Below are positions 13,721 through 49,912 of a DNA stretch of 64,000 nucleotides, in pieces. Each line of letters starts with the position of its first letter. Position 1 is the first letter of the stretch. The notes below the pieces were generated by a model. That model was given only the letters and a program-made list of their open reading frames with translations. It was not told the DNA's origin and searched no databases. The position numbers were made by a program, and so were the translations under genes. Source of the DNA: Patescibacteria group bacterium (lineage in GTDB: Bacteria; Patescibacteriota; Patescibacteriia; Patescibacteriales; JAQTRU01); NCBI GenBank assembly GCA_041645555.1, contig JBAZPX010000004.1:10334-74333 (forward strand), read 5' to 3'.

Positions 13721-14030
13721 AAAATTATCTTCCTCCTTAATTTCTTTACTTTATTTTTCATTCTCTCAAACAATAATTATTCCTTTTTAATCATTAAATT
13801 ATTTAATCTTCTTATTTTTAATCATTGGTTAATTAGGGCTAATGGGGTGCAGATCAGCGAGGCCGATTTGACCTTTTTAGCCCTAATAACTAATGATAGT
13901 TTTACTTTATCCGGCTCCCGTTTCTCCGTCAAGTAAATAACTCGTTAATAAGCTGGGGGAAAGCCGGAAAAAACTGTGCAAAAAAATGTGGATAAAACGG
14001 GGATAAATACCCCTATATTTTGATAATATT

Positions 14031-14390
14031 TTAAATAACATCCTTATAATGTTTAATCTTAGCCATTTTTTCCTGCCGGCTGATATCGACAGAAATGAAG
14101 TCCAGCCTAACTAAATTTTCATCTAGATTATTTTCATAAATATAAAATTCCAGAGCCTTTTTCAGATTACTCAATTTTTTAGATTCAAAAGCGTCCTCGG
14201 CGCTTCCAAAAATTGATGATAATCTGGTTTTTACCTCAACAAAAATCAGCGTTTCCCCAACCCGGGCAATAATATCTATTTCCTTAAAACTAATTTTTAC
14301 ATTGATGTCTATGATCTTATAGCCATGTTTTAATAAATAGTCCCTAGCCAAATTCTCGCCAAATTTTCCCACCACCTGTTTATAATTCAT
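14031..14390 (-). CDS. yraN: YraN-family endonuclease (UPF0102)
   Basis: GENLARDYLLKHGYKII..EIDIIA..LIFVEVKTR..RLDFISV matches the YraN pattern. Confidence 0.75.
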   Translation of the reverse strand: MNYKQVVGKFGENLARDYLLKHGYKIIDINVKISFKEIDIIARVGETLIFVEVKTRLSSIFGSAEDAFESKKLSNLKKALEFYIYENNLDENLVRLDFISVDISRQEKMAKIKHYKDVI

Positions 14391-14457
14391 ATGACCAGAA
14401 AAATAAAAAGACCTTAATCGGCCTTTTTATTTTATTATTTTATTATTTTTTTATTTT

Positions 14458-14868
14458 TTAAGGTATGTATTTTTTATATTCCTTTTCCTCCTCAAGCTTT
14501 TTTTTCCTTTCCGGTATTTTCAACAGGGATTTAGCAATAAAAACAAGCCAAACCAGCATAAAAACCGCCCAAAGAAGAAGCCAAAAACGGGAGGACAGGA
14601 AGGGAATAAATTCATAATTAAAAAAAAGTAGAATTAAACCGATAAAAGCATTGGCCAGGGAGAAAGAAGAAAGCCGCCGCCAAAAAGAAGCATAAAGGCC
14701 TCCTTTTTTAGCGATAAAAAGACGGTAGAAAAGAAAAAAAACGACCAAAGCCAAAACAAAAATAATAAAAATCTTTTGGTAAATAGGCAGAAGCGCGTCC
14801 GGCCTGAGATTAAACCAAAATTTTAGTGATAAAAGATTCCCCATAATTTTAAAAATAAAATAATACAA
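14458..14868 (-). CDS. hypothetical membrane protein
   Basis: Four hydrophobic helices and a K/E-rich C-terminus. The start may be the internal Met at 14844. Confidence 0.45.
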   Translation of the reverse strand: MYYFIFKIMGNLLSLKFWFNLRPDALLPIYQKIFIIFVLALVVFFLFYRLFIAKKGGLYASFWRRLSSFSLANAFIGLILLFFNYEFIPFLSSRFWLLLWAVFMLVWLVFIAKSLLKIPERKKKLEEEKEYKKYIP

Positions 14869-14941
14869 GAATAAAATAATAAAGTAATTTATTTCAGCAT
14901 CCTATTATTTTATTTTTATATTATTTTGTTATTTTATTATT

Positions 14942-15496
14942 TTACAGCTTAACAAATAAAATCCCAAAATGATACTGGCCGGCTTCAAATTCGTCCTCTA
15001 TTTCCAACCCTAATTTCTTTGCTCCAATTTTCAAGAGATCCGGCTTAACCCTTTCTTCTGGCGGCGGCCCAAAAGGGGAAGACACGTTCTTCCACTCTAC
15101 TACTAATAATTTCGCCCCTTTTTTGAGCATCCTTATGGCTTCCCGCAAGATTTCCACTCTTTTATGGGATTGATACAAGGTATTTATAAGCAAAGCCACA
15201 TCAAGGCTGCCCGATTCTATCCTGGTGGCTTTAAAAACCTCCAAATCGCTCCAAACCGTCCTGATGTTCCCTATGTTTTCCTGCTTAACCCTTTTATCAA
15301 TTCCCCCTAAAACCGTTTTTAAAATATCAACGGCATAGACAACGCCTCTTTTGCCAACCATTTTCGCGGCGGGAAAAATAAAATGCCCGGAAGCGCCGCA
15401 GCCCAAATCAGCTACTTTTATATTTTCCGTGATTTGCGCTTTGCTTAATATAAAATCCGCGTCAAGCAAAGCATTTCCTCCTGTAACCCTAAACAT
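14942..15496 (-). CDS. class I SAM-dependent methyltransferase
   Basis: Motif I VADLGCGASGHF; 184 aa. Confidence 0.65.
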   Translation of the reverse strand: MFRVTGGNALLDADFILSKAQITENIKVADLGCGASGHFIFPAAKMVGKRGVVYAVDILKTVLGGIDKRVKQENIGNIRTVWSDLEVFKATRIESGSLDVALLINTLYQSHKRVEILREAIRMLKKGAKLLVVEWKNVSSPFGPPPEERVKPDLLKIGAKKLGLEIEDEFEAGQYHFGILFVKL

Positions 15497-29947: not shown

Positions 29948-30135
29948 TGTTTAAGAGAAAAATGAACAATTTTTCTTTACCTTAAACCATTATTTTTAAA
30001 ATGTCAACTGAAAAATAATTTTCCCTTGACCTTTCTTCTGGATTATGTTAATTTTATAATATTCTAATAACTTAATATCTAATGACCTTTTCTTGGATAT
30101 GGCTTGGCGCCCATTTCTCGGATAAGGCAAAAACT

Positions 30136-30525
30136 ATGCTTACCAGAAAAGACAAGCAAAAAATCATCGCTAAATTCAGAACCCATGATAATGACACGGG
30201 TTCGCCCCAGGTCCAGATTGCAATTTTAACTGAAGAAATTAAGCAACTGACCGAACATTTAAAAAACCATAAGCATGACCATTCTTCCCGGCGCGGACTT
30301 TTAAAGAAGGTCGGGGAAAGAAGAAGATTATTAAAATATCTGCAGAAGGAAGATGAAAAATCTTTTAAGGATTTAACAGGCCGGCTTAAATTAAAAATCG
30401 CCAAAAGAATGCAGGAAGAGGAAGACGAAAGAATAAGGATAGAAGAAGAACTGAATAAAAAAGATGAAATAAAAGTAGAGGAAGAAGAAGCGGTTGAGCC
30501 GGCTAAAGAAGACGAAGAAGAATAA
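30136..30525 (+). CDS. rpsO: 30S ribosomal protein S15 with a ~40-aa acidic C-terminal extension
   Basis: ORF trimmed to MLTRKDKQKII. GSPQVQIAILTEEI..L..HLK.HKHDHSSRRGLL then ..EEEDERIRIEEE..EEEE. Confidence 0.85.
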   Translation: MLTRKDKQKIIAKFRTHDNDTGSPQVQIAILTEEIKQLTEHLKNHKHDHSSRRGLLKKVGERRRLLKYLQKEDEKSFKDLTGRLKLKIAKRMQEEEDERIRIEEELNKKDEIKVEEEEAVEPAKEDEEE

Positions 30526-31398: not shown

Positions 31399-33678
31399 AT
31401 GAAACAAGAAGAACAAGTTTTTGAAACGAAGTGGCTTGACCGCCCACTCACTATTAAAACGGGCAAATTAGCTAAACAGGCAGATGCCGCCGTTACCGTC
31501 CAGTACGGGGAAACGGTAGTTATGGCTACGGTCGTGGAATCAAAAGGAGAAAGAGAGGGAATTGATTATTTCCCTTTGATGGTCGATTTTGAAGAACGGC
31601 TTTATGCCGCCGGAATTATTAAGGGTTCGCGCTGGATAAAAAGAGAAGGCCGGCCTTCGGATGAGGCGGTTTTAACCGGCCGGATGATAGACCGGGCAAT
31701 CCGGCCTCTTTTTAACGAAGCGTCCCGAAAAGACGTCCAGGTTATTATTACGGTCCTGTCCGTTGACCAGGAAAACGATTATGATATCGCTTCTTTAGTC
31801 GCCGCTTCCGCGGCCCTGTCTATTGCCGGCGTTAATTGGAACGGTCCGATTGCCGGTATAAGGGTCGGCCGTCTTGAGGGCAAATTTATTTTTAATCCGA
31901 CCTATGAAGAAAGAATAAAAAGCGACCTTGATTTAATCGTGGCCGGAACAGAGAAAAAAGTAATAATGCTAGAAGCCGGAGCGAGCGAAGTAAAAGAAGA
32001 AGAAATAGAAAAAGCTATTATGGCCGGGCAGAAGAATCTTCAGGAAGCGATAAAGTTAATTAAAAAAATGGTTAGCGCAGTTAAGCCAGAAGCAAAAATA
32101 GCCAAAAATAAATTAAAAAGCCAGGAAGAGATAGAAGCGGAAAAAGAAAAAGAAAAACTATTCACGGAAACGAAAAAATGGCTTAAAGAAAATATCGCTC
32201 CGATTCTTTTTGATAAAACTTATTATACTAAAGGAGAGAGAAAAGCAGCTGTCAAAGCGATTGAGGAAAAACTGGACGAATATCTTTTCTCGTCCGGCAT
32301 CGGACGCGACCGCCGGCAGGAAATAATTAAAAAACTGGTTTCTCCGGCAGTTGAAGCTGAGGTCACAACGGCAATTTTAGAAAATAAAAAACGAGTTGAC
32401 GGAAGGAAACTTGATGAAATAAGACCTTTGACGGCCGAAGCCGGGATCCTCCCGCGCAATCACGGTTCCGGACTCTTTTCCCGCGGCGAAACCCAGATTA
32501 TGTCTATTGTCACTTTGGGCGCGCCCGGATTAGAGCAGTCTTTAGAAGGCCTTGAAGGCAACAGTAAAAAAAGATTCATGCACCATTATAATTTTCCGCC
32601 CTATAGCGTCGGTGAAGTAAGCCCCTTGAGAGGAGCGGGCCGAAGAGAAATCGGGCATGGCGCTTTGGCGGAAAAAGCTTTAATGACTCTTATCCCAGCT
32701 AAAGAAGATTTTCCCTATACGATCAGATTGGTGAGCGAAACCCTTGGTTCAAACGGATCTTCTTCTATGGGCTCAACTTGCGCCTCCAGCTTAGCCATGA
32801 TGGACGCCGGCGTGCCAATTAAAAAAGCCGTAGCCGGAATTGCTATGGGCCTGGCTTCTAACGCCGACATGAGCCAATGGGAAATATTAACCGACATCCA
32901 GGATTTAGAAGACGGTAAAGGCGGCATGGACTTTAAAGTCGCCGGGACTCGAGACGGTTTAACCGCCATTCAGCTTGATACTAAAACCGACGGTCTGTCT
33001 GAAGAAATAATTAAAAAAACTTTAAAGCAGGGAAGGATAGCTTTAGATAAAGTTTTGGCAGTTATGGAAAAAGAGATTAAGGAACCGCGGCCGGAACTGT
33101 CTAAATACGCTCCCCGCATTATTTCTTTCCGCATTGATCCGGAGAAAATCGGTTCAGTTATCGGTCCGGGCGGAAAAATTATTAATAAAATAATCGCGGA
33201 AACGGAAGTAACGATTGATATCGAAGACGACGGCTTAGTGATGATTTGCGGCCTTAACCCGGAAAAATGCCAGGAAGCGGCTAAGCAGGTAAAAGACATA
33301 GTCCGGGAATTCGCGGCCGGAGAAATCTTTACCGGCAAAGTTGTCCGGATGCTTGATTTCGGAGCCTTCATTGAATTAGTCCCGGGCCATGACGGCATGG
33401 CGCACGTGAGCGAACTGGCGCCTTACCGCATCGGCAAGCCAAGCGATTTCTTAAAAGTCGGGGATACAGTCACGGTTAAAATTAAAGAGATAGACGAGCA
33501 GGGCCGGGTTAACTTAACTTTGAAAGGTTTGCCGGAAAACGAGCATCTCTGGAAAGACGGTAAAGGTAAATCTGAAGGCAACGGATTCGGGGGCGGCGAT
33601 GGAAGGCCAAGATTCGGAGGCGGAGGCGGACGAGACAAATTCTCCGGACGCGGAGGCGGAGGCGGACGAAGGTTCTAA
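31399..33678 (+). CDS. pnp: polynucleotide phosphorylase with a Gly/Arg-rich C-terminal tail
   Basis: 759 aa. Two RNase PH domains, KH and S1 (FTGKVVRMLDFGAFIEL). Tail GGGDGRPRFGGGGGRDKFSGRGGGGGRRF. Confidence 0.9.
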   Translation: MKQEEQVFETKWLDRPLTIKTGKLAKQADAAVTVQYGETVVMATVVESKGEREGIDYFPLMVDFEERLYAAGIIKGSRWIKREGRPSDEAVLTGRMIDRAIRPLFNEASRKDVQVIITVLSVDQENDYDIASLVAASAALSIAGVNWNGPIAGIRVGRLEGKFIFNPTYEERIKSDLDLIVAGTEKKVIMLEAGASEVKEEEIEKAIMAGQKNLQEAIKLIKKMVSAVKPEAKIAKNKLKSQEEIEAEKEKEKLFTETKKWLKENIAPILFDKTYYTKGERKAAVKAIEEKLDEYLFSSGIGRDRRQEIIKKLVSPAVEAEVTTAILENKKRVDGRKLDEIRPLTAEAGILPRNHGSGLFSRGETQIMSIVTLGAPGLEQSLEGLEGNSKKRFMHHYNFPPYSVGEVSPLRGAGRREIGHGALAEKALMTLIPAKEDFPYTIRLVSETLGSNGSSSMGSTCASSLAMMDAGVPIKKAVAGIAMGLASNADMSQWEILTDIQDLEDGKGGMDFKVAGTRDGLTAIQLDTKTDGLSEEIIKKTLKQGRIALDKVLAVMEKEIKEPRPELSKYAPRIISFRIDPEKIGSVIGPGGKIINKIIAETEVTIDIEDDGLVMICGLNPEKCQEAAKQVKDIVREFAAGEIFTGKVVRMLDFGAFIELVPGHDGMAHVSELAPYRIGKPSDFLKVGDTVTVKIKEIDEQGRVNLTLKGLPENEHLWKDGKGKSEGNGFGGGDGRPRFGGGGGRDKFSGRGGGGGRRF

Positions 33679-33764: not shown

Positions 33765-33798
33765 ATACTATTTTGTTATTCTCTATTTTATCTCCTTA

Positions 33799-33838
33799 CT
33801 TGACATAATGTTTAAAGTATGATATGATTAAATATTAA
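33799..33838 (+). promoter_or_regulatory. sigma70-type promoter, cassette A (40-nt copy identical to 35740-35779)
   Basis: TTGACA (33800-33805), 17-nt spacer, TATGAT (33823-33828). Confidence 0.65.
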
Positions 33839-33899
33839 TTGTACATTACATTTCATAACAATTTTTTATAGCACAACAATTTTTCTGATGAGGTGTGAG

Positions 33900-34124
33900 A
33901 TGAAAGACTGGCGAGACGTACTGCTCCTAATTTTAGTCGTTTTTGTCATCGCCTCAACTGTGATGACTGTCTTTGGATTGTATTTGCCGATGTATTTGCC
34001 TCATTTAACTATGGCGAAAACATTCCCCATCATAGCAAAATTTTCCCAGATATGGAGCTTCGGATTTATGCTTATGGGGGTCATCCGTCTTATACATTAC
34101 TTAAGTACAAAAATGAAGGAGTAA
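33900..34124 (+). CDS. small membrane protein (74 aa), cassette A only
   Basis: SD gaggtg upstream of ATG 33900. Two or three hydrophobic helices. Confidence 0.45.
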   Translation: MKDWRDVLLLILVVFVIASTVMTVFGLYLPMYLPHLTMAKTFPIIAKFSQIWSFGFMLMGVIRLIHYLSTKMKE

Positions 34125-34169
34125 AACTGTAAACTGCTGATAATCCGTTGGAAAACCAAGGAGGAGAAC

Positions 34170-34634
34170 GTGAAAAAGAGACTGCAAATCCGCATGCAAA
34201 CCGACAACAACAGCGTTCGGGCCAGCCAGGCCGGTATTAACCGCTATTATGAGGGAAAATACCTTATTTCCGATATTACTTCGATAACCGACGTCTTCTG
34301 CGGCTCCACCATCGCCAGTCTTCAAACGACTTTGGCCGCCTGTTGTGCAAATGGCATGAAGCTCCCCTTGCACGAAACCGACCTCAGCAGCCTCGGAACA
34401 ACCGAGGAAATGCCCGCGGCCGATCTCGTCCAGGCGGCTATCCGAGATGCTTTCACCAAAATCAAGAACGGCGGTCACGGTCTTATCTTCTGCGACCTCC
34501 GGACCATTCAGGTGATTATTTCCTCGTTCGGCCTTAATATTATCGACACTCATCCCAGACCCTGCGAAGGTTTCATGTTCGAGCAGGACGACCAGGACGA
34601 AATCACCGTCCCCGGAATCCTCCGGATACTTTAA
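34170..34634 (+). CDS. GC-rich Cys/His-rich protein of unknown family, paralog A (154 aa)
   Basis: SD ccaaggagga plus a GTG start. Shares MKKRLQIR, TDVFCGS, ACCANG, GHGLIF and CEG.M.EQDD..ITV.GIL with paralog B, and many aligned codons differ only at the third position. Confidence 0.7.
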   Translation: MKKRLQIRMQTDNNSVRASQAGINRYYEGKYLISDITSITDVFCGSTIASLQTTLAACCANGMKLPLHETDLSSLGTTEEMPAADLVQAAIRDAFTKIKNGGHGLIFCDLRTIQVIISSFGLNIIDTHPRPCEGFMFEQDDQDEITVPGILRIL

Positions 34635-34665
34635 CTCCACTACCCATCAAACAGATCATGGGCAT

Positions 34666-34717
34666 GGACCGAAGTTGAAAAGCGAGAAACTTTGCTTTTC
34701 AACTTCGGTCCTTTTTT
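34666..34717 (+). terminator. long-stem intrinsic terminator, cassette A
   Basis: ggaccgaagttgaaaagc-gagaaacttt-gcttttcaacttcggtcc followed by tttttt. Confidence 0.8.
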
Positions 34718-34733
34718 ATATTATTTTATTATT

Positions 34734-35747
34734 TTATAACGTCGTAATCGGCCGAGACTGGGTAATATAAAATTTTCCTTTTTCCAAAGCCCACTCTATA
34801 TCCTGCGGCTTTTTATAATGCTTTTCAATCTTGGCGCAAAGTTTAGCCAGCTCTATAATTTCCTTACCGGTTAAAGTCTGCTTGCCCTGGTCCGCTTTCG
34901 GAACTTTCTTCCAGATATTTCCGCCCCGCATGTTTTGCACCAGCATTTTTTCCTGCTCGGAGACGTTTATATCAGACAAGCTAAAATCCCGTTTATCAAT
35001 TACATAAGTGTCTGGGGTAATTTGGCCGGAGACGATGGCTTCGCCTAAGCCATACCCGGCTTCAATTACCATCTGGTTTCTGTCTTTCGTAATCGGATGG
35101 ACCGTAAAGCAAATTCCGGAAATTTCCGACTGGACCATTTTCTGAATTACCACGGCCACTGACACTTTCTGGTCAACCATTTTTTTTTCAAAGCGGTAAA
35201 AAATCGCCCGCGGGGTAAAAAGAGACGACCAGCATTTTTTCACGTTGGTAAGCAATCCTTTTTCTTCGGTATTAAGATAAGTTTCCAACTCTCCGGCCCA
35301 GGAAGCGATAGAAGAATCTTCGGCCGTGGCTGAAGACCTGACGGCCACGTACTTAGCTTTAAGTTTTTTAAACTCAGTTGTAATTTCCTTAGCCAGTGGT
35401 CCCGGAATCATCGTGTCCTGCATAATATCGCGGATAACGTTTGAAGCCTGGTCAATGGAATTAGTGTCGTCGTAATTCACTTTGGAAATCTGGGCTTCTA
35501 TATCCAAGCCGGTTTCAGAGGCCGGAGACTTTGGCGTGTTAACCATGAAATAATCAAAAGCCGGAGCCAAAATTACGAATCCAGGTGGAACCGGGTTTGA
35601 TTTAGCCTGCCCGCCGCCCGCCTGCCGGCGAGGCAGGAAGAGGTGGGTCATTTCCCCTAAAGAAGCGCCTTTGCCTCCAGCAATCCCAACATTTTTTTTG
35701 CTAATTTTAGAGAAATCTTTAATAAATTCCTGTTTTTTCCTTGACAT
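34734..35747 (-). CDS. stand-alone PEP/pyruvate-binding ATP-grasp domain protein (PPDK_N, N-terminal module of PEP synthase/RPH-type dikinases)
   Basis: VGIAGGKGASLGEM..VPPGFVI..VAVRSSATAEDS..SFAG-like..QDIEWALEKGKFYITQSRPIT. No swivel or PEP-binding TIM-barrel domain in this ORF. Confidence 0.8.
   Translation of the reverse strand: MSRKKQEFIKDFSKISKKNVGIAGGKGASLGEMTHLFLPRRQAGGGQAKSNPVPPGFVILAPAFDYFMVNTPKSPASETGLDIEAQISKVNYDDTNSIDQASNVIRDIMQDTMIPGPLAKEITTEFKKLKAKYVAVRSSATAEDSSIASWAGELETYLNTEEKGLLTNVKKCWSSLFTPRAIFYRFEKKMVDQKVSVAVVIQKMVQSEISGICFTVHPITKDRNQMVIEAGYGLGEAIVSGQITPDTYVIDKRDFSLSDINVSEQEKMLVQNMRGGNIWKKVPKADQGKQTLTGKEIIELAKLCAKIEKHYKKPQDIEWALEKGKFYITQSRPITTL
35605..35649. repeat. GC-rich hairpin stretch inside the ATP-grasp CDS
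   Basis: gcctgcccgccgcccgcctgccggcgaggcagg, with hairpin cctgcc-ggcga-ggcagg. It encodes LPRRQAGGGQA between the conserved GEM and VPPGF blocks. Confidence 0.5.
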
Positions 35748-35779
35748 AATGTTTAAAGTATGATATGATTAAATATTAG
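35740..35779 (+). promoter_or_regulatory. sigma70-type promoter, cassette B (40-nt copy identical to 33799-33838)
   Basis: TTGACA (35741-35746), 17-nt spacer, TATGAT (35764-35769). The -35 box overlaps the ATG (35745-35747) of the divergent ATP-grasp gene. Confidence 0.65.
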
Positions 35780-35881
35780 TATATTTTGTTTTTTACAATT
35801 CGCAATCGTAATAATAGCAACAAAACCAGTAGCAAAAACCACAACCGCTGGTAAATTGCCGGCAAAACCAAGGAGGAAACC

Positions 35882-36439
35882 TTGAAGAAGAGACTGCAAA
35901 TTCGTAGACACACCGACAAGAACGGCGAGCAGGCCAGCCAGGCCGGACTTGGCCGTTTCCGCCACGAAAATCTCGTCGACGCTCCCAAAACCGTCACCGA
36001 TGTTTTCTGTGGCTCCCATCTCAGCCGAACCGCCCAGACCGCCCTCGGTGCCTGTTGCGCCAACGGCATCAAGGCCTGTGTCCATGAAGCCGATCCGAGA
36101 TTCGGCACCTCCGAGATGTTCGACGGCTGGAAAGCCAGAGGGCTCCTCGACAAAGTCAAGGCAGCCGGAAGCCTGTACGCCGCGCTCCTGCTGATTCTCG
36201 ACGAGAAGGAACTCGACCTGGTTCGGACCGCCCTCAAGAACGCGACCGAAGAGGCCTTCTGCAAGATCGAAGATGATGGACACGGGCTCATCTTCCACCA
36301 TTCGCCCTTGGTGGAACTGACCGCCACGATCTTCGGCTATCCCGCCGAAACCCTCAAGCTCGCTTCCTGCGAGGGGATCATGCTTGAACAGGACGATGAC
36401 GGCGACATCACCGTCACCGGAATCCTTTACGCCGCCTGA
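35882..36439 (+). CDS. GC-rich Cys/His-rich protein of unknown family, paralog B (185 aa)
   Basis: SD ccaaggagga plus a TTG start. Same conserved blocks as paralog A, plus a ~30-aa internal insertion. Confidence 0.7.
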   Translation: MKKRLQIRRHTDKNGEQASQAGLGRFRHENLVDAPKTVTDVFCGSHLSRTAQTALGACCANGIKACVHEADPRFGTSEMFDGWKARGLLDKVKAAGSLYAALLLILDEKELDLVRTALKNATEEAFCKIEDDGHGLIFHHSPLVELTATIFGYPAETLKLASCEGIMLEQDDDGDITVTGILYAA

Positions 36440-36461
36440 TCCCTCGGCACAACATCATGAA

Positions 36462-36517
36462 GACCGATTCTTCTAAGCAAGAAACATTTGCTTTAGGAGA
36501 CTCGGTCCTTTTTTTTT
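36462..36517 (+). terminator. long-stem intrinsic terminator, cassette B
   Basis: gaccgattcttctaagcaa-gaaacat-ttgctttaggagactcggtc followed by ttttttttt. The loop region is similar to the cassette A terminator. Confidence 0.75.
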
Positions 36518-36530
36518 ATCCAAACACCGC

Positions 36531-37028
36531 ACCTCACCCCCCGTCCAAACTACCTCACCCCCGACCCCTCCCCTAGTCAGGGGAGGGGGAATTAAATAAA
36601 TCTTTTCTGATTTTATTTAAAACTGCTTCTATATTATTCTCAACTTCTTTATTTTTAAATCTTATAATTTTATAGCCGGCTTGCTTTAAGATATCTTCTC
36701 TAATTAAGTCCACTTCTTTTATCTCCCTTTTATTATGAACTCCGCCGTCAATTTCTATTATCAATCTTTTTTGGGGACAATAAAAATCAATAATAAAATT
36801 ATAAACTCCCAAAACCAATGGCTCCTGCCGCCTAAATCTAAAGCCTAATTTTCCATCCCCTAGTTCTCTCCAAAGTATTTTTTCGGCTTTGGTCATATCC
36901 TGCCGAAGCGCTTTAGCTATATATAATATTTTTGTATTTCCCGACATATAGATATCATCTCCCCCGGCCCCTCTCCTGACTAGGAGAGGGGAAGCGATCC
37001 GCCAGCTGGCGGAGAGACGGGGTGAGGT
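36531..37028. mobile_element. DUF559 endonuclease gene unit bounded by inverted GC-rich ends (putative selfish element)
   Basis: acctcacccc (36531-36540) is the exact reverse complement of ggggtgaggt (37019-37028). Internal palindromes cccctcccc-tagtca-ggggagggg (36565-36588) and cccctctcctgac/taggagagggg (36968-36991). Confidence 0.45.
36573..36947 (-). CDS. DUF559 (Vsr/restriction-endonuclease-like) domain protein
   Basis: ORF trimmed to MSGNTKILY. LR...T.AE..LW..L......FRRQ....Y..DFYC....L.IE.DG..H, then IIRF.N.EV. Confidence 0.7.
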   Translation of the reverse strand: MSGNTKILYIAKALRQDMTKAEKILWRELGDGKLGFRFRRQEPLVLGVYNFIIDFYCPQKRLIIEIDGGVHNKREIKEVDLIREDILKQAGYKIIRFKNKEVENNIEAVLNKIRKDLFNSPSPD

Positions 37029-37041
37029 GCGGGCCGTAAAA

Positions 37042-37977
37042 TCACCCAACAATCGAAATTTTCGTTCCATCAATCACAACCTCATCTCCATTTTTTAAAA
37101 TCTTAGTCGCATTTTTAACGTTCACCAGGCAGGGTTTTTTTGCCTCCCGCGCCAAAGTCGCGACGTGGCAGGTCAAACTTCCTCTTTCTATAATAAAGCC
37201 AGAGATATGGCTGCGCAAGGTCGGCAATAATTTCATATCTGAATCAGGCAAAACTACAATATCTCCTTTAACAACTTTATTTTTATCTTTAGCGGTTTTT
37301 ATAATTCTAACTTTGCCTTTGGCCTTGCCGGGTGCGGCCAAAACTCCGGATAACTCTTTAAAAGGACTAGCCCTTAATTCTTTCTCCAATTCTTTTTTCA
37401 TATTTTTAAAATCTTTTATTAAAATGGTTTTTATGCCCATTCTTTTAGCGTCAATCAAATTACTCTCATTATCATCTATATAAATTACTTCTTCCGGTTT
37501 TACCTTAAACCTTTTTAAGACTAACCTCAAGGTCTCTTCGCTCGCTTTAGGCAAATTAAGCTCCCAGGTATTGATAATATTTTTAAATATTTTTTTTAAA
37601 CCAAATTTTTTTGTTACGTCCGCCAGCTGGCTGCGGGTATTTTTGGAAAGAAGCAAGGTCTTATAACCCCCTTTATTAAGCTCCCGATTTAATTTAACCG
37701 TTTCTTTATTAAGTTTCATTAAGCTATAATGCAATTTTTTAATTTCCGGCAGAGAAATCGGCAATTTAAAATAATCAATCGGTTCAAGCCAGGCTTGTTT
37801 CTGCGTGATCTTCCTGGTGGCAGCTAAATTCATATATTTATGATAAAAAACCTTGTGGTAATCCTGCCAGCGGCCGCCGAATTCCTTAGCCAAAGCTTTG
37901 GCGGTATTGGGATAACCCTCATTTAAAACTAAACCATAGCAATCAAAAATAATAAGCTTTATTTTATTCTTTCCCAT
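37042..37977 (-). CDS. HAD-like hydrolase fused to a PEP-utilising phosphohistidine swivel domain
   Basis: HAD motifs IIFDCYG, LLLSKNT and YIDDNESN. C-terminal GSLTCHVATLAREAKKPCLV. Confidence 0.7.
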   Translation of the reverse strand: MGKNKIKLIIFDCYGLVLNEGYPNTAKALAKEFGGRWQDYHKVFYHKYMNLAATRKITQKQAWLEPIDYFKLPISLPEIKKLHYSLMKLNKETVKLNRELNKGGYKTLLLSKNTRSQLADVTKKFGLKKIFKNIINTWELNLPKASEETLRLVLKRFKVKPEEVIYIDDNESNLIDAKRMGIKTILIKDFKNMKKELEKELRASPFKELSGVLAAPGKAKGKVRIIKTAKDKNKVVKGDIVVLPDSDMKLLPTLRSHISGFIIERGSLTCHVATLAREAKKPCLVNVKNATKILKNGDEVVIDGTKISIVG

Positions 37978-37979
37978 AA

Positions 37980-39533
37980 TTATTTAATAATTCTTACTAA
38001 ACCCTTGTCCGCGTCCACCTCTACCCTATCTCCATCTTTTAAAACTTTAGTGGCGATTTTCGTCCCGACCACGCAGGGAATTTTTAATTCCCGAGCCACA
38101 ATCGCCGCGTGGCAGGTCAAGCCGCCGATATTAGTGACAATGGCCGCGGCTTTTTTCATAGCCGGCACCAAGGCCGGATAAGTGGTTTCCGAAAGCATAA
38201 TGTCCCCTGGCTTCATTTTCGGCATATCTTCAATCGTTTCTATAATTTTTACTATTCCCCGGGCTTTGCCAGGAGAAGCGGTCTGGCCGGAAAGCTCATT
38301 AACTTTCTTAATTTTTTCTTTCTCCCACTTCGTCTTTTTTAAAAAATCATGCGCCCTTTTCCCGGAATAAACATAAACTTTTTTCCAGGTGCCGTGCATA
38401 ACAGAAAATTTAGGTCTTTCGTCCAGGTCCCTGGTGTTAAATTTACCAGCCAGGAGCGCTTCCCCAAACTCTTCCCTGGTCATAAATTCCGCCTGCTTGT
38501 AGCTTATAAACAACCGCCGGGCAATTTCTTTAACAAACTGGTTGGCCACATAAGCGCCAAAATACATGCAATCCTTGCGGTAAGCTTTCAGCCAGACAAT
38601 ATAGCGGGCCTCCCTAAAAAGTTCTTCGCGCTTGGCATCAAATTTTAATTTAGCCAGAAAATTTTTCTGCTCTTTTTTTAGCTTGCTATATTTAACTTCT
38701 GATTCTTTAAGATACTCTCTAGTTTTTCCTTCCCGAATAAGGCCTCGCCAAACCTCAAGGAAATAATCAAATTCCAAAATCGGCCCGCGATAATTATAAT
38801 GAAGCCAAAACCATTTTTTCTGATGATTTTCTATCTTTTTAAATAAAGCTGGTTTTTGCTTTTTAAGCTCCTTCTCTATTTTAAAAACGTCATCATTCTT
38901 CTTAAAAGTCAGAGCGGCTTTTTTATCTTTAGAAATTTCATAAGCCATTTTTAGGCTTTCCTGATTTTCAATTTCTACAAAACTGGGGCGTAAGGGCGTG
39001 GTAACAAGAGGAAAAACGCTGGACGGCTCAAGCTTTAATTTATCTTTTTTAATTTTGTCTTTTAAATAATTAAAAAGGTAATTGGAAAATAACTGGTAAT
39101 CGGCATCAATCAGCCAGGTCGTGGCCTGGCCGAAGCCGTGGCTTCTGATCTGCAATTCAAGCAACCGGTCAAATTTTTTTATCAACTGTGCGTCGGATAA
39201 TTTTTTTAAATTAAAATTCAATAAAGATTTAGAAAAAAGCAAATATTCTTTGGCAAAAATTTCCACATTCCTATTCATCTTTGCCAGCCAGGGCAAATCC
39301 GTTGTCGCTTTGAAAAAAATATTTTTTACCATTTTATCAAATTCTCTCCGCACGTAACAAAGATTAAAAACCCCGTCTCTTATCACCCAAATTAGCTGCT
39401 TGAGAGCGTCTCCCAACCCTTGTTGCTTCAAACGTCTGCCATAATCAATAAAAACATTATAGGTCATAATATAATTAGCATCCGGAATTCTTTCCGCCAC
39501 AAACCAGATGGTTTGTTTCTTGTTTTTTGCCAT
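37980..39533 (-). CDS. unknown helical domain fused to a C-terminal PEP-utilising swivel domain
   Basis: 517 aa. C-terminus PGKARGIVKII..MKPGDIML..GGLTCHAAIVARELKIPCVVGT. Confidence 0.7.
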   Translation of the reverse strand: MAKNKKQTIWFVAERIPDANYIMTYNVFIDYGRRLKQQGLGDALKQLIWVIRDGVFNLCYVRREFDKMVKNIFFKATTDLPWLAKMNRNVEIFAKEYLLFSKSLLNFNLKKLSDAQLIKKFDRLLELQIRSHGFGQATTWLIDADYQLFSNYLFNYLKDKIKKDKLKLEPSSVFPLVTTPLRPSFVEIENQESLKMAYEISKDKKAALTFKKNDDVFKIEKELKKQKPALFKKIENHQKKWFWLHYNYRGPILEFDYFLEVWRGLIREGKTREYLKESEVKYSKLKKEQKNFLAKLKFDAKREELFREARYIVWLKAYRKDCMYFGAYVANQFVKEIARRLFISYKQAEFMTREEFGEALLAGKFNTRDLDERPKFSVMHGTWKKVYVYSGKRAHDFLKKTKWEKEKIKKVNELSGQTASPGKARGIVKIIETIEDMPKMKPGDIMLSETTYPALVPAMKKAAAIVTNIGGLTCHAAIVARELKIPCVVGTKIATKVLKDGDRVEVDADKGLVRIIK

Positions 39534-39542
39534 ATCAAAAAA

Positions 39543-41420
39543 TTAACTCTTTTTTAATATTTTTACTAAGCCCTTATCCGCATCCACCTCTACTATATCC
39601 CCATCTTTTAAAACTTTAGTGGCGATTTTCGTGCCGATAACGCAGGGGGTATTTATCTCCCGGGCGACAATCGCGGCGTGCGAAGTTACTCCGCCCTGGT
39701 CTGTGACAAAAGCCGCGGCTTTTTTCATGGCCGGCAATAAATCCGGCTGGGTGGAGATGGAAACTAAAATATCTCCCGGTTTCATCTTCCCCATATCACG
39801 AATTACATTTATAATTCGAACCACTCCTTTGGCATACCCCCTGGCCCCGCATTGGCCCTTTATTTCCGAGACCTCCTTTATTTCATCTGGCTCTATATAT
39901 TTTACTATTTTTTTGGCCTCCTCGCCACTATAGAAAAGATGCTCACCCTTAGCCGTGTAATAAACGGAAAAGTTAACTCTTTTTTTTATCTCTCCTTTAT
40001 CTAAAACACCGCTAAATAAACCGTTATAAATTTCTTCGCTGGTCATGAACTTTACCTCCTTTAAGGAGAGACCCAGGCGCCGGCCAATTTCGGAAAGCAC
40101 CGGCACCATCCGATAAATAGCAAAAATCTGGGCATAGCGCCGATAAATTTTTGTTACCATAAACTCGCCCCAGGCGTTAAAAAATTTCAGGAGCCGGCCT
40201 TCTATTTTTAATTTTTTAATCAGCAATTCCCGCTCGAGCCAGTCCTTTTTCCGTTTAGCCTCGCTTTCCTTAAATGCCTTGGCCAAATTATTATTATTGC
40301 TGACCAACCTCACTAAAGCTTTTAAATAATGCTCGAGGCTATAAATGCCCTGCTCTTCGGTAAAGAGAAATTTAGTATAAAAATATTTAGTATAATGGCT
40401 TTCCAAATCGTCTAATATGTCCTTTCTGATTTTGCCTTTCAACTGCCTTACTTTTTCTTCAAATTTCTCTTCGTATTCGGGGCTGTGGGCGTATAAATCG
40501 AATTTCTTTACTTCCTCGTCCTTGAATCTTTTAAAAAGTTCCCTGAATAAATTAAGCTGCTTTTTATCTTCCTGAATTTTGATGCCTATTTTTATAAGAT
40601 CATTTTCTTCTATCGCGAGCAAAGATAATTTTTCCGGCTGGGCAAGAATTACTAAGCTCTGGCCGATATTTTTTTCCGATACCCCCAGGCCGGTTAAGAT
40701 TTTTTCTCCCCGGCCGGTTAAATTATTAGAAAACATATCCGCTGCGACCGGAATCCAGCCCCATTGGTAATATTCGGTATGGATGTCTTCATGGCCCTTA
40801 TACAAATTCCAAAGCTCCTTATCGGATAATTTTCCCAAATTATCTTCGGGCAGTTTAGAAACATACTGCCGGAGCTTATCAGAATGATTGACAATTTCTT
40901 TATTGACCTTGTCCATAAAATCCTGATCGCTCTCGAATTTATCAACCAGATGCTCCCCCACTTCATAAGCGTCTTTTTTATCATAATAAAACCAGAGATT
41001 GTATTTCTTATGGACCGAGACCACTTTTTTATAAGCCCGGCCGCCCGGAGAAGCAAATTCATCCACGAAACAGTTGGCAAATATTTGGTAAAAAAACGGG
41101 TCAGTATTCTTTAATTCTTCGGCCAGCAGCCACTCGGTCTCAAATTTACTTTTTGAGTCACCGGCCCTGTTTTTATTAAATAAATTTATCAGCTCTTTCG
41201 CGGAGTTAAAATTAGAATTTAGGCCATAATATTTTTTATTGCCTTTGCTAATTACTTTTATTACTTCCTCTCGGGCTAATTTCGTAAGCTCCCTGGTAAT
41301 ATTAGCCGGGTCTTTGCTTAACTTTGAGGCAATCTCTGATAAATAAAAAGTCTTGCCTTGATTTTGGGTTAATAAATCAAGGATTTCGTAAGAAGTTTTG
41401 GATTTAAATAAATTTTTCAT
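39543..41420 (-). CDS. winged-HTH domain plus unknown helical domain plus C-terminal PEP-utilising swivel domain
   Basis: ORF trimmed to MKNLFKSK. N-terminal wHTH (YLSEIASKLSKDPANITRELTKL). C-terminal GGVTSHAAIVAREINTPCVIGT. Confidence 0.7.
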   Translation of the reverse strand: MKNLFKSKTSYEILDLLTQNQGKTFYLSEIASKLSKDPANITRELTKLAREEVIKVISKGNKKYYGLNSNFNSAKELINLFNKNRAGDSKSKFETEWLLAEELKNTDPFFYQIFANCFVDEFASPGGRAYKKVVSVHKKYNLWFYYDKKDAYEVGEHLVDKFESDQDFMDKVNKEIVNHSDKLRQYVSKLPEDNLGKLSDKELWNLYKGHEDIHTEYYQWGWIPVAADMFSNNLTGRGEKILTGLGVSEKNIGQSLVILAQPEKLSLLAIEENDLIKIGIKIQEDKKQLNLFRELFKRFKDEEVKKFDLYAHSPEYEEKFEEKVRQLKGKIRKDILDDLESHYTKYFYTKFLFTEEQGIYSLEHYLKALVRLVSNNNNLAKAFKESEAKRKKDWLERELLIKKLKIEGRLLKFFNAWGEFMVTKIYRRYAQIFAIYRMVPVLSEIGRRLGLSLKEVKFMTSEEIYNGLFSGVLDKGEIKKRVNFSVYYTAKGEHLFYSGEEAKKIVKYIEPDEIKEVSEIKGQCGARGYAKGVVRIINVIRDMGKMKPGDILVSISTQPDLLPAMKKAAAFVTDQGGVTSHAAIVAREINTPCVIGTKIATKVLKDGDIVEVDADKGLVKILKKS

Positions 41421-41640
41421 ATTAATTCGGATGAGCGCAATTTGTAGAATGCGCATTTAATACTTATTTTTGTTTAATAAACAATAATTTTTGTCTATTA
41501 AACATAATACCTCTCTTCTCGCCTAAATGTCAAGACCGAAAAAGGAACTTGACTTCTATTAAAGATTAAGTTAATATCAAACTATTAAATCATTAAAGGC
41601 AGTCTATATTTCTAGCTCTCTAGGAAGCTGCAAAATAATT

Positions 41641-42021
41641 ATGTTGATAATAAGATTATCAAGAATCGGAAAAAAGAATAAGCCGATGTATCGCTTAATA
41701 ATATCGGAAAAGAGCCGCGATTTATACGGCCAGTCTTTAGAAATTCTGGGCTCTTATAACCCCCATAGCAAGGAATTACAAGCCAAGGCGGAAAGAATAA
41801 ACTATTGGCTGGGTAAAGGCGCCGGCATGTCTCCCACAGTTAATAATCTCCTAATTGAAAAGGGGATAATTAAAGGTGAAAAAATCAAAGCTTCTAAAGC
41901 CGGGAAAAAGGGCGAGGCAGCCCCGGTTGCGGCTCAAACACCAAAAGAAATTAAGGAAGTAAAACCAGCAGAGGTAGAGGTGAAAGAAGAAAAGGGAACC
42001 GAGCCGGAAAAGACTGAATAA
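41641..42021 (+). CDS. rpsP: 30S ribosomal protein S16 with a Lys/Glu/Ala-rich C-terminal extension
   Basis: MLIIRLSRIGKKNKPMYRLII...LG.YNP........INYWL.KGA..S. Confidence 0.85.
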   Translation: MLIIRLSRIGKKNKPMYRLIISEKSRDLYGQSLEILGSYNPHSKELQAKAERINYWLGKGAGMSPTVNNLLIEKGIIKGEKIKASKAGKKGEAAPVAAQTPKEIKEVKPAEVEVKEEKGTEPEKTE

Positions 42022-48472: not shown

Positions 48473-49912
48473 TTAGCGATTTTTTTTCAAGACCCTGACG
48501 ATGCCCTTATTAGCGTCAACCTCTATTAAATCGCCATCTCTTAAAATTTCAGTAGCGACTTTCGTACCGACGATACATGGGATACCTAACTCCCTGGAGA
48601 TAATAGCGGTGTGGCAGATAATACCCCCTTCATCCGTGACGATAGCTTTGGTTTTTCTCATAGCCGGAACAAAATCCTGCCTGGTCACGGCGGCCACCAT
48701 AATATCGCCCCTTTTTACTTTATCTAAGTCTTTATTGGTATAAACTACTTTTACTCTGCCTCTGGCAAATCCTTGGCAGGCGATAACTCCTTTTATTTCC
48801 TTTGATCTTCTGGCTCTGCTAAAATCTAACTCGTTTTTAAACTTACTTGCAGCCTGGCTACCGGAATAAATTTTTACTTTGTTTCCCTTTTGGATCAATA
48901 AATAATTTTTTTCTCTTTTTTTTGTCTCTCCTCTCGGAAACTTCTTATGGCTTTTTAAATACCCAATAATTTCGTCATTCGTTAAAACTGCTGCTTCTTT
49001 TACCCCCAAACCCAACCGTTTTCCAGCTTCAGAATAAAATTCCCTTAGCTCAAGATTTAATTTTTGCCTGATCATGTCCCGATAATCCCTTAAAAAAACA
49101 TTCTCTTTCAAAAATTGAAGCAAATTTTTTAATTTTTTATCCGGTTTTATCTCTCTTGTTATTTTTTTAAAATTTTTCCGGTTTTTCAGGAATAATCTTT
49201 TTAATTTTCCCAATTCCTTATCTGGATTTTTTATATCTTTTAACTCTTGCAAAAAATGGCTTGCCGTATATGGCTCATGGTCAAAATCAAACATCGGAAT
49301 ATGCTGATATTTTTTAGTATGCCTCTTTATCCTCTCTAAAAACTCCCTTTTGCTTAACTTATTTTTTGCCCTAGCTAATTCCAAAATATCAATTCTTTCT
49401 TCCAAAACATTATTCGGGGTTAATTGAGAAGATAACTTTAAAAGATACTCATCCGTCTTACTTTTATCTCCTAAAGGTCTCCCTGATTCCTTTTTAAAAA
49501 TAACCGCTAAGGGCTCGGCAATATTAAAAACCGTCCACATTCTTGCATAAAACTGCTCTACGTTCGGCAACAGAAAATTTACATATATTTTTAATAATTC
49601 TGCATCAGACAACTCTGATAAATTTCTATTAAATTTTTTTTCTATATCTTCCAATATACCTTCTAATTTACTTCTAGCTTCCTTGTGAAAATTTTTAACA
49701 AATTTCTCATTGCGCAATAGTCTATATAAACCTTCCTCATAGTTTTCGTATTGCTTTTTATCAACATAATATTCTGTTTTATTAGAATCCCTAAAAATCA
49801 GAGTGTTTTCCAAAGAAACTCCATAAACTTTTTTCATTGCCTTGCCCCAGCCGAAATTCCAGGCTTGGGCCACCTGAACGGCCAGCCTTCTTGTAATATA
49901 TTTAGACCACAT
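48473..49912 (-). CDS. unknown helical domain fused to a C-terminal PEP-utilising swivel domain (fourth swivel paralog)
   Basis: 479 aa. C-terminus GFARGRVKVVY..VKRGDIMV..GGIICHTAIISRELGIPCIVGT. Confidence 0.7.
   Translation of the reverse strand: MWSKYITRRLAVQVAQAWNFGWGKAMKKVYGVSLENTLIFRDSNKTEYYVDKKQYENYEEGLYRLLRNEKFVKNFHKEARSKLEGILEDIEKKFNRNLSELSDAELLKIYVNFLLPNVEQFYARMWTVFNIAEPLAVIFKKESGRPLGDKSKTDEYLLKLSSQLTPNNVLEERIDILELARAKNKLSKREFLERIKRHTKKYQHIPMFDFDHEPYTASHFLQELKDIKNPDKELGKLKRLFLKNRKNFKKITREIKPDKKLKNLLQFLKENVFLRDYRDMIRQKLNLELREFYSEAGKRLGLGVKEAAVLTNDEIIGYLKSHKKFPRGETKKREKNYLLIQKGNKVKIYSGSQAASKFKNELDFSRARRSKEIKGVIACQGFARGRVKVVYTNKDLDKVKRGDIMVAAVTRQDFVPAMRKTKAIVTDEGGIICHTAIISRELGIPCIVGTKVATEILRDGDLIEVDANKGIVRVLKKNR

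Follow-up and report, generated by a model that had tools for sequence, protein, structure and literature searches.

What does a single ATP-grasp protein do in the company of four proteins that each end in a phosphohistidine swivel domain? The question is raised by a 64,000-nucleotide (nt) stretch of contig JBAZPX010000004.1 (assembly GCA_041645555.1), hereafter the window, which is part of a metagenome-assembled genome of Patescibacteria, or Candidate Phyla Radiation (CPR) bacteria. A first reading made from the letters alone (the sequence-only reading) had pointed to five open reading frames (ORFs), and all five proved to be present and intact. They lie on the minus strand and encode G (34734..35747, 337 amino acids, aa), a stand-alone ATP-grasp protein of the PPDK_N type; a HAD-swivel protein (37042..37977, 311 aa); and the carriers p517 (37980..39533, 517 aa), p637 (39543..41456, 637 aa) and p479 (48473..49912, 479 aa). 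We favour, and hold to be somewhat likelier true than false, the reading that they form a hub-and-spoke, two-component, ATP-dependent small-molecule dikinase of the type represented by rifampin phosphotransferase (RPH), PpsAB and HpeHI.

The ATP-grasp protein and its candidate acceptor modules

G carries the PPDK_N module and nothing else, as the sequence-only reading had held: the Pfam match (E 1.2e-88) covers profile positions 3-311 of 328, and no other domain was found. Its motifs are GGKGASLGEM (35649-35678), VAVRSSATAED (35316-35348), DIEWA (34788-34802) and QSRPIT (34743-34760). Over its full length it aligns with the ATP-grasp domains of P. furiosus phosphoenolpyruvate (PEP) synthase (E 1.5e-67) and RPH (E 8.5e-60), and also matches a 387-aa stand-alone chain, 9goj (E 2.5e-41), an entry code cited in the HpeHI paper (PMC12167813). 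Mutagenesis of RPH has shown that Lys22, Arg117 and Thr136 position ATP (PMC4844700). These residues align to K26, R137 and T156 of G, in which the DIEW and QSRPIT motifs are likewise kept; among stand-alone orthologues (n=16-17), which are 38-74% identical, K26, R137, T156 and the motif residues are invariant. By these alignments G is the counterpart of HpeI and PpsB, and corresponds to the N-terminal domain in RPH and PEP synthase. The NCBIfam PEP synthase model scores it at 310 bits, below that model's cut-off of 598 bits, compared with 270-290 bits for the RPH models; one of the latter, NF041857 (cut-off 999 bits), gives 270 bits for G and 68 for p517. Directly after the GGKGASLGEM nucleotide-binding motif, G contains a GC-rich, partly palindromic in-frame insertion (35595-35642) encoding LFLPRRQAGGGQAKSN, which is present neither in PEP synthase or RPH nor in the consensus of 16 stand-alone orthologues. 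The orthologue of G in L086 (GCA_028716725.1), a syntenic locus of a close relative whose orthologous genes are 80-87% identical, is 13 residues shorter.

The swivel domains are found where they had been placed: Pfam PEP-utilizers matches the C-terminus of all four partner proteins, and a six-frame phmmer search of the 64 kb returned exactly one ATP-grasp domain and four swivels. The motifs quoted earlier were all recovered, namely GGLTCHAAIVARELKIPCVVGT with His475 in p517 (swivel 37983-38318, His codon 38109-38111), GGVTSHAAIVAREINTPCVIGT with His593 in p637 (39546-39881, codon 39678-39680), GGIICHTAIISRELGIPCIVGT with His434 in p479 (48476-48808, codon 48611-48613), and the variant GSLTCHVATLAREAKKPCLV with His271 in the HAD-swivel protein. 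PEP-utilizers spans residues 441-511 of p517, 559-629 of p637 (E 8.9e-26) and 400-470 of p479 (E 4.1e-23). The Thr that stands two residues before the His in PEP synthases is kept in GGLTCH, GGVTSH and GSLTCH and is Ile in p479 (GGIICH); NCBIfam scores for the swivel are 132 bits with PEP synthase and 111 bits with RPH.

Upstream of its swivel, p517 has no Pfam match. Its AlphaFold2 model, built with 50 homologues (predicted local distance difference test, pLDDT, 92.9; predicted template-modelling score, pTM, 0.89), has the RPH structures 5hv1, 5fbu and 5fbt as its best PDB matches in Foldseek (E ~1e-13, ~590 columns, template-modelling (TM) scores of 0.55-0.57), and all non-RPH matches are confined to the swivel. 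Since the match to RPH extends beyond the swivel, the helical domain of p517 (38319-39533) is a homologue of the rifampin (RIF)-binding domain of RPH, with an identity of 14-16% in the structural alignment. Residues 104-636 of p637 (E 3.8e-74) and 39-478 of p479 (E 9.5e-52) align to the p517 family profile in hhalign, placing their RIF-binding-like domains at about 39882-41147 and about 48809-49798. The earlier description of two related helical domains therefore stands as to relatedness and falls short as to number, all three being homologous (hhalign E 1e-52 and 4e-74). The match to the RPH substrate-binding domain also rules out that these regions are PPDK_N subdomains, a case that the sequence-only reading had equated with the simple fission of one ancestral enzyme; the outcome is nonetheless close to a simple gene fission.

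Residues 306-516 of the p517 family profile align to RPH 656-866. Within the invariant basic cluster K316/R319/K320 of p517, K316 and K320 fall on RPH R666 and K670 in a part of this profile-to-PDB alignment that has low posterior confidence. Arg666, Glu667 and Lys670 of RPH lie on the helix that performs the second phosphotransfer (PMC4844700). The sequence matches and the model suggest that G and each carrier with a RIF-binding-type domain make up a split RPH-like dikinase. Among p517, p637 and p479 the swivels are 50-68% identical and the acceptor domains merely 27-30%; the three presumably serve three different acceptors.

The winged helix-turn-helix (HTH) that had been proposed at the N-terminus of p637 (about 41169-41420, residues 19-67) is supported by several models: its MarR match is weak (E 6.4e-5, 23.2 bits against a cut-off of 24.6, 48 of 59 profile positions) and is backed by HTH_20, Csa3-HTH and the HTH models of PADLOC and NCBIfam. 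As for a known defence system, the PADLOC matches are confined to p637 and are generic HTH hits; G, p517, p479 and the HAD-swivel protein have none.

Missing from the window, as had been noted before, is the PEP/pyruvate-binding TIM barrel. A hidden Markov model (HMM) built from seven genuine PEP-synthase barrels, which detects all canonical PEP synthases of the comparison loci, reached a best E of only 0.087 (6 bits) in the window, and Pfam PF02896 has no match in any of the five proteins. In the comparison loci the barrel was never found in split arrays and was confined to canonical PEP synthases.

The fourth swivel belongs to a protein without an RPH-type acceptor domain ahead of it. Here (Pfam HAD_2/Hydrolase, HAD_2 8e-16; PEP-utilizers 2e-19) a HAD-IA domain (37375-37962) precedes a divergent mini-swivel (37045-37359, His271 codon 37165-37167). 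Motif I of the HAD domain (37936-37944), earlier read as DCY, indeed runs D12-C-Y14-G (FDCYG) and not DxDx(T/V). The Tyr at Asp+2 is a family trait and not a mark of decay, because 115 of 121 homologues keep it. D12, K112, K144 and D168-D169 are invariant, and motifs II-IV (S111/K112, K144 and the DD of residues 168-169) are intact. The fold, a Rossmannoid core with a C1 cap, is closest to the phosphatase domain of soluble epoxide hydrolase and to YihX (TM 0.73-0.82 on target), and the HAD moiety forms a tight ~200-aa protein family in CPR and DPANN, with members inside the carrier arrays of L009, L027, L028, L031, L088, L094, L102 and L122.

L086 has the two halves as separate genes, in the order HAD (199 aa), 494-aa carrier, free 115-aa swivel, DUF559, orfB-like gene and G; the free HAD and swivel are 81% and 80% identical to the respective halves of the window's fusion. 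Homologues as distant as 44% identity are still fused, the order in one protein is reversed (swivel-HAD-HAD), and a 110-aa swivel adjoins a HAD-like gene in L089. As fused and separate forms occur, in both orders, the HAD enzyme and its dedicated mini-swivel constitute a functional pair, which would be the fourth spoke: a mini-swivel tied to an enzyme with an intact Asp nucleophile. The phosphorylated His (His~P) may hand its phosphate to a substrate in the HAD site or to Asp12 itself, and the AlphaFold2 model of the fusion (pLDDT 86.5), whose inter-domain geometry is uncertain (pTM 0.65), therefore does not choose between these acceptors.

The gaps between p637, p517 and the HAD-swivel gene are 9 and 2 nt, and a good promoter-like site (41504..41533, minus strand, TTGACA-18-TATTAT, 11/12, identified by a consensus scan alone) lies upstream of p637, so these genes probably form one operon. 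The adjacency described earlier thus holds for the three swivel genes, which are contiguous, and not for G, which is set apart by a DUF559 endonuclease-like gene (36573-37073, minus strand) and an ORFan on the opposite strand (35882-36439). p479 is found 7 kb from the other carriers, between trxB-like and rnhB-like genes.

Gene counts in CPR and DPANN neighbourhoods

Is the excess of swivel genes over ATP-grasp genes peculiar to this window? It recurs whether loci are collected around the swivel or around the ATP-grasp gene. A swivel-centred scan with the p517 family profile, using one genome per GTDB species, returned 79 loci, which belong to numerous CPR phyla and to DPANN archaea (Micrarchaeota, Woesearchaeota, Nanoarchaeota, Undinarchaeales). 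In these loci, in those found by protein look-up and in the window, ORFs were called and compared with HMMs of G, of the swivel and of the RIF-binding-like domain, and swivel-only ORFs of at least 300 aa were counted; all counts refer to neighbourhoods of at most 21 kb and not to whole genomes. The 68 loci that contain such ORFs (1.10 Mb) hold 216 of them, as against 19 stand-alone G ORFs. None of the 68 has a second G, and loci with G have a median of 3 carriers and a maximum of 9. Starting from the other gene, an unbiased scan of metagenome contigs yielded 31 stand-alone G loci, 12 of them at least 15 kb long. The carriers in these 12 number 4, 3, 3, 4, 2, 6, 1, 0, 0, 2, 1 and 1, again with no second G. 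The ratio of carriers to G is 4:1 in the window and 1:1 to 9:1 in related loci. Independent gene calls show G, three carriers, His_Phos_1 and an acylphosphatase in L001 and six tandem carriers in L004, while L088 has a compact operon of G, three swivel proteins and HAD. The sequence-only reading had suggested that the split may be an event of this one lineage, a view that the spread of the architecture over CPR bacteria and DPANN archaea overturns.

The carriers form a large family. p517 has more than 3000 homologues, the best of which are ~515 aa long and come from Patescibacteria; its N-terminal domain is represented by 870 clusters of 50% identity at E <= 1e-3 and 407 at E <= 1e-10, and the best 150 clusters are mostly ~500-520 aa long, the length of the split form. 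In reciprocal-best comparisons with other CPR and DPANN loci, p517 and p637 have orthologues of their own, those of p637 being found in L009, L074, L017, L003, L018 and L004 with N-domains 31-37% identical. This makes the paralogs ancient, with an identity conserved for each spoke; the pattern is neither rapidly diversifying nor defence-like. The N-terminal modules of 81 diverse carriers mostly lack a Pfam match, apart from a few that are Epimerase_2-like or carry a Cro/C1-type HTH, and a recurrent class of short carriers (~350-370 aa) has an N-domain of ~245 aa without a match to the RIF-binding-domain profile. Some giant ORFs, P0241 (1506 aa), P0243 (2309 aa), P0252 (1500 aa) and those of L032 and L055, contain 3-4 RIF-binding-like copies per protein and are either fused tandem carriers or read-through gene calls.

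Seven large-array loci from third-party assemblies (L020, L014, L044, L046, L051, L064 and L074) are labelled 'uncultured Gammaproteobacteria', 'Methanosarcinales' or 'Bdellovibrionales'. The content of the loci suggests that these automatic labels may be mistaken; were they true, the family would extend past CPR and DPANN.

Some neighbours recur. A gene for an acylphosphatase (79-91 aa) is found downstream of the carrier or carriers that follow G in L001 (11539-11814), L087 (11569-11808) and L089 (13038-13310), directly after the p517-type carrier in the first two and with one carrier between in the third, and sometimes overlaps the preceding gene. A His_Phos_1 phosphatase gene is located just upstream of G in L001 and L087; neither gene occurs in the window. 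After its operon, L088 encodes an EamA transporter domain fused to a flavokinase domain (13804-15066), a possible hint of vitamin or cofactor salvage.

Proposed shared charging and its alternatives

The split itself is not new. The two-polypeptide, RPH-like form is already known from the biochemically characterised two-component dikinases PpsAB, CreHI and HpeHI (PMC12167813). In those systems, as in the present one, a separate ATP-grasp chain is accompanied by a second chain in which an RPH-type substrate-binding domain precedes a C-terminal His-swivel, a TIM barrel is absent, the interaction is presumed to be transient, and ATP is presumed to yield AMP, inorganic phosphate (Pi) and a phosphorylated product via His~P. 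HpeI is the ATP-grasp protein, and HpeH has been modelled as a RIF-binding domain joined to a swivel, whose His is indispensable; no stable complex forms between the two proteins, and raising HpeI to as much as a 500-fold excess increases the rate linearly (PMC12167813). The differences are equally clear. The known systems are 1:1 pairs, whereas here one G goes with 4 carriers, and with up to 9 elsewhere; they belong to aromatic catabolism clusters of Actinobacteria and Proteobacteria, whereas the present hosts are CPR and DPANN without such a context; HpeH, CreH, PpsA and RPH have Met where PEP synthase has its regulatory Thr (PMC12167813), in contrast to the PEP-synthase-like GGxTCH seen here; and a winged HTH and a HAD enzyme with mini-swivel occur only here as extra modules. 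The best window score with the PpsA-like NCBIfam model PRK08296 is 111 bits, from the swivel region alone, against a cut-off of 578 bits, and by this measure the window proteins are not members of the PpsA-like equivalogs.

More distant relatives help to place the system. RPH, the single-chain PigC/RedH and PRK06241-type 'PEP synthases' share its three modules, the acceptor fold (Foldseek E 1e-13) and, apparently, basic residues on the phosphotransfer helix, but RPH has ATP-grasp, RIF-binding and swivel domains in one chain, whereas here the chain is split and the carrier multiplied. PEP synthase, the closest sequence relative of G and the swivels, has the same swivel motif including the regulatory-site Thr; its acceptor site, however, is in a C-terminal TIM barrel (PF02896) of the same chain, which is replaced here by RIF-binding-like, HAD or unassigned modules N-terminal to the swivel. 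In the glucan, water dikinase of plants the swivel His also serves an accessory substrate module that is not a TIM barrel, but that enzyme is one very large polypeptide, has carbohydrate-binding modules and differs in domain order. The PEP-dependent phosphotransferase system (PTS: Enzyme I, HPr, Enzymes II) likewise has one energy-coupling component that supplies phospho-His carriers and many substrate modules, and the Enzyme I swivel is homologous. Its donor is PEP, via a TIM barrel, whereas here the donor would be ATP, via ATP-grasp, and there are no homologues of HPr or Enzymes II, which makes this an analogy and not a membership.

We propose that the single ATP-grasp protein G would bind ATP and that the C-terminal swivel of each carrier in turn would dock on it transiently. 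The swivel His would attack the beta-phosphate, becoming pyrophosphorylated and then phosphorylated, with the gamma-phosphate leaving as Pi and AMP being released. The His~P swivel would then return to its own N-terminal acceptor domain and phosphorylate the molecule bound there, and the co-encoded HAD, acylphosphatase and His_Phos_1 enzymes would act downstream. We infer from the gene counts that G charges all the carriers, and likewise infer which way the phosphate flows and that the acceptors are small molecules; that the system traps or activates scavenged metabolites, which the co-encoded phosphatases then process, is a guess. Sharing of G would be mechanistically easy, since HpeHI works without a stable complex and at a rate that rises linearly over so wide a range of HpeI (PMC12167813). 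Across genomes G is 38-74% identical, compared with 30-50% for the carriers, which fits a hub, though ATP-grasp domains are conserved in general.

Several points weigh against shared charging. The higher conservation of ATP-grasp and swivel domains is also seen in ordinary PEP synthases and so is weak evidence for a hub. A second ATP-grasp protein or a full PEP synthase or pyruvate phosphate dikinase (PPDK) may exist elsewhere in the genome, beyond the neighbourhoods counted. The swivel linked to HAD is divergent, being 38-46% identical to the others with GS in place of GG, and might fail to dock on G. In addition, the residue of p517 opposite the essential Glu667 of RPH is Ala, in a stretch where the alignment has low confidence.

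The best of the alternatives, though a rather improbable one, is that G has one true partner, the p517-type carrier, and that the others act without it, either as transphosphorylases that shuttle phosphate among small molecules or charged by another donor. In L001, L087 and L089, G lies directly upstream of the p517-type orthologue and nearly overlaps it, a frequent translational coupling that could reflect one preferred partner, and in the window p479 sits apart in a housekeeping operon; HpeH alone, moreover, exchanges phosphate between the phosphorylated product and another substrate (PMC12167813). The arrays, however, offer the remaining carriers no alternative charging domain, with neither a TIM barrel nor a second ATP-grasp in any of them. 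The swivels of p637 and p479 also keep the full PEP-synthase-type motif at 50-68% identity to that of p517, and in the L088 operon three carriers follow G, and the first of them is not the p517-type.

A further possibility, which we consider less probable again, is that the system runs many-to-one: the carriers would take phosphoryl groups from energy-rich metabolites such as acyl or enol phosphates and pass them via the swivel His to G, which would regenerate ATP from AMP and Pi. PPDK in anaerobes and PEP synthase in Thermococcus glycolysis run toward ATP formation, and the present hosts have a minimal energy metabolism. By the bit scores given above, G and the swivels resemble PEP synthase more than RPH, the carriers keep the PEP-synthase-type Thr that HpeH, CreH, PpsA and RPH lack (PMC12167813), and an acylphosphatase gene recurs after the p517-type carrier. 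Yet all characterised enzymes with a RIF-binding domain consume ATP and yield low-energy phosphoesters, the present data identify no high-energy donor, and co-encoded phosphatases would waste such donors.

Marginally fainter still is the prospect of a regulatory phosphorelay, in which G-dependent His~P would control the attached modules, namely DNA binding by the winged HTH and catalysis by HAD, in the manner of PTS regulation domains or of a His-to-Asp relay onto Asp12. An N-terminal HTH does recur, MarR-like in the window, L001, L008 and L065 and of the Cro/C1 type elsewhere. The HAD active site, which resembles that of response-regulator receivers, keeps the Asp nucleophile without the Asp+2 general acid. 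Most carriers nevertheless have no HTH, the orthologues of the p637 acceptor domain usually lack it, and the conserved basic cluster, which probably lies at the phosphotransfer position of RPH, would imply a bound acceptor. HAD phosphatases without Asp+2 also exist, such as the structural neighbour YihX, whose motif reads DLG.

Decay of an ancestral PEP synthase or PPDK into functionless fragments, which the sequence-only reading had named as the pseudogene outcome and which the generic annotation of all these proteins as 'PEP-utilizing enzyme' and their scores far below the PEP synthase cut-offs might suggest, is refuted by intact ORFs with orthologues in two domains of life, the 870 clusters of the p517 N-domain, a fold predicted with high confidence, invariant catalytic residues and N-terminal domains that do not derive from PEP synthase.

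Returning to the hub-and-spoke reading, a bolder extension, which we put forward tentatively and with more doubt than belief, is that CPR and DPANN share a PTS-like, ATP-driven phosphoryl-distribution network in which one strongly conserved ATP-grasp charger supplies up to ~10 genome-specific phospho-His carriers, each with its own acceptor module, including a free mini-swivel that passes phosphate to a DxY HAD enzyme (possibly His-to-Asp) and HTH-tagged carriers. If true, the network would be among the largest enzyme families in ~1 Mb genomes, and it could be a central route for trapping and activating host metabolites or, in reverse, for regenerating ATP from AMP. Hub-and-spoke charging would itself extend the swivelling-His dikinase principle to one nucleotide site with many acceptor modules in trans, and would add HAD and unassigned folds to the acceptor modules of the dikinase toolkit.

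In the literature library searched by full text, no paper that connects these domains with CPR or DPANN came up, though absence from that library is not proof. The multi-carrier arrays around a single ATP-grasp gene, the pairing of HAD with a mini-swivel and the distribution over both CPR bacteria and DPANN archaea appear to be undescribed so far, and the carrier paralog tagged with a winged HTH also looks new. CPR and DPANN genomes are about 1 Mb in size and encode almost no biosynthesis, and how these organisms capture and use host-derived metabolites is a standing question. In such a genome this conserved family can take up as much as 15-20 kb, in arrays that reach nine paralogs, and is annotated merely as 'PEP-utilizing enzyme' or mistaken for PEP synthase/PPDK in metabolic reconstructions. 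Gluconeogenic or PPDK calls in CPR and DPANN may often be wrong, and 'PEP synthase/PPDK' calls deserve re-examination. The arrays constitute a major, experimentally tractable enzyme system.

DNA around the ATP-grasp gene and elsewhere in the window

Two paralogous plus-strand modules (33796-34711 and 35737-36515) flank G, each consisting of a 42-nt promoter-like repeat, a Shine-Dalgarno site, an ORF and a hairpin terminator. The repeat copies (33796-33837 and 35737-35778; TTGACA-17-TATGAT) are 98% identical, and the second overlaps the start codon of G on the opposite strand. The ORFs, orfA (34170-34634, 154 aa) and orfB (35882-36439, 185 aa), have GC contents of 52.5% and 59.5%, compared with 40.4% for the window, and are open in several frames; neither has a Pfam, Rfam or PADLOC match, and homologues were found in the two closest relatives alone. 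We also considered these GC-rich regions as structured RNAs and rejected this, as Rfam returned no match, either with gathering thresholds or with E <= 1. Substitutions in the DNA alignment follow a codon pattern and the indels are in frame, and we therefore read the flanking regions as paralogous protein genes without a Pfam family.

The DUF559 gene (Vsr-like endonuclease), with the HAD-swivel gene on one side and orfB on the other, has its probable start codon (ATG) at 36946, and L086 carries it at the same place. It is bracketed by nested, GC-rich inverted repeats, one 100% complementary (36527-36540/37019-37032) and one 92% (36565-36588/36968-36991), and the segment looks like a small mobile cassette.

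Elsewhere in the window, the polynucleotide phosphorylase gene (31399-33678) encodes a Gly/Arg-rich tail, GFGGGDGRPRFGGGGGRDKFSGRGGGGGRRF (tail region 33560-33678), part of which is specified by a 19-nt exact direct repeat (33615-33633 and 33651-33669). The genes for ribosomal proteins S15 (30082-30525) and S16 (41641-42021) both encode long charged C-terminal extensions, the former rich in Glu and Lys and the latter in Lys, Glu, Ala and Pro.

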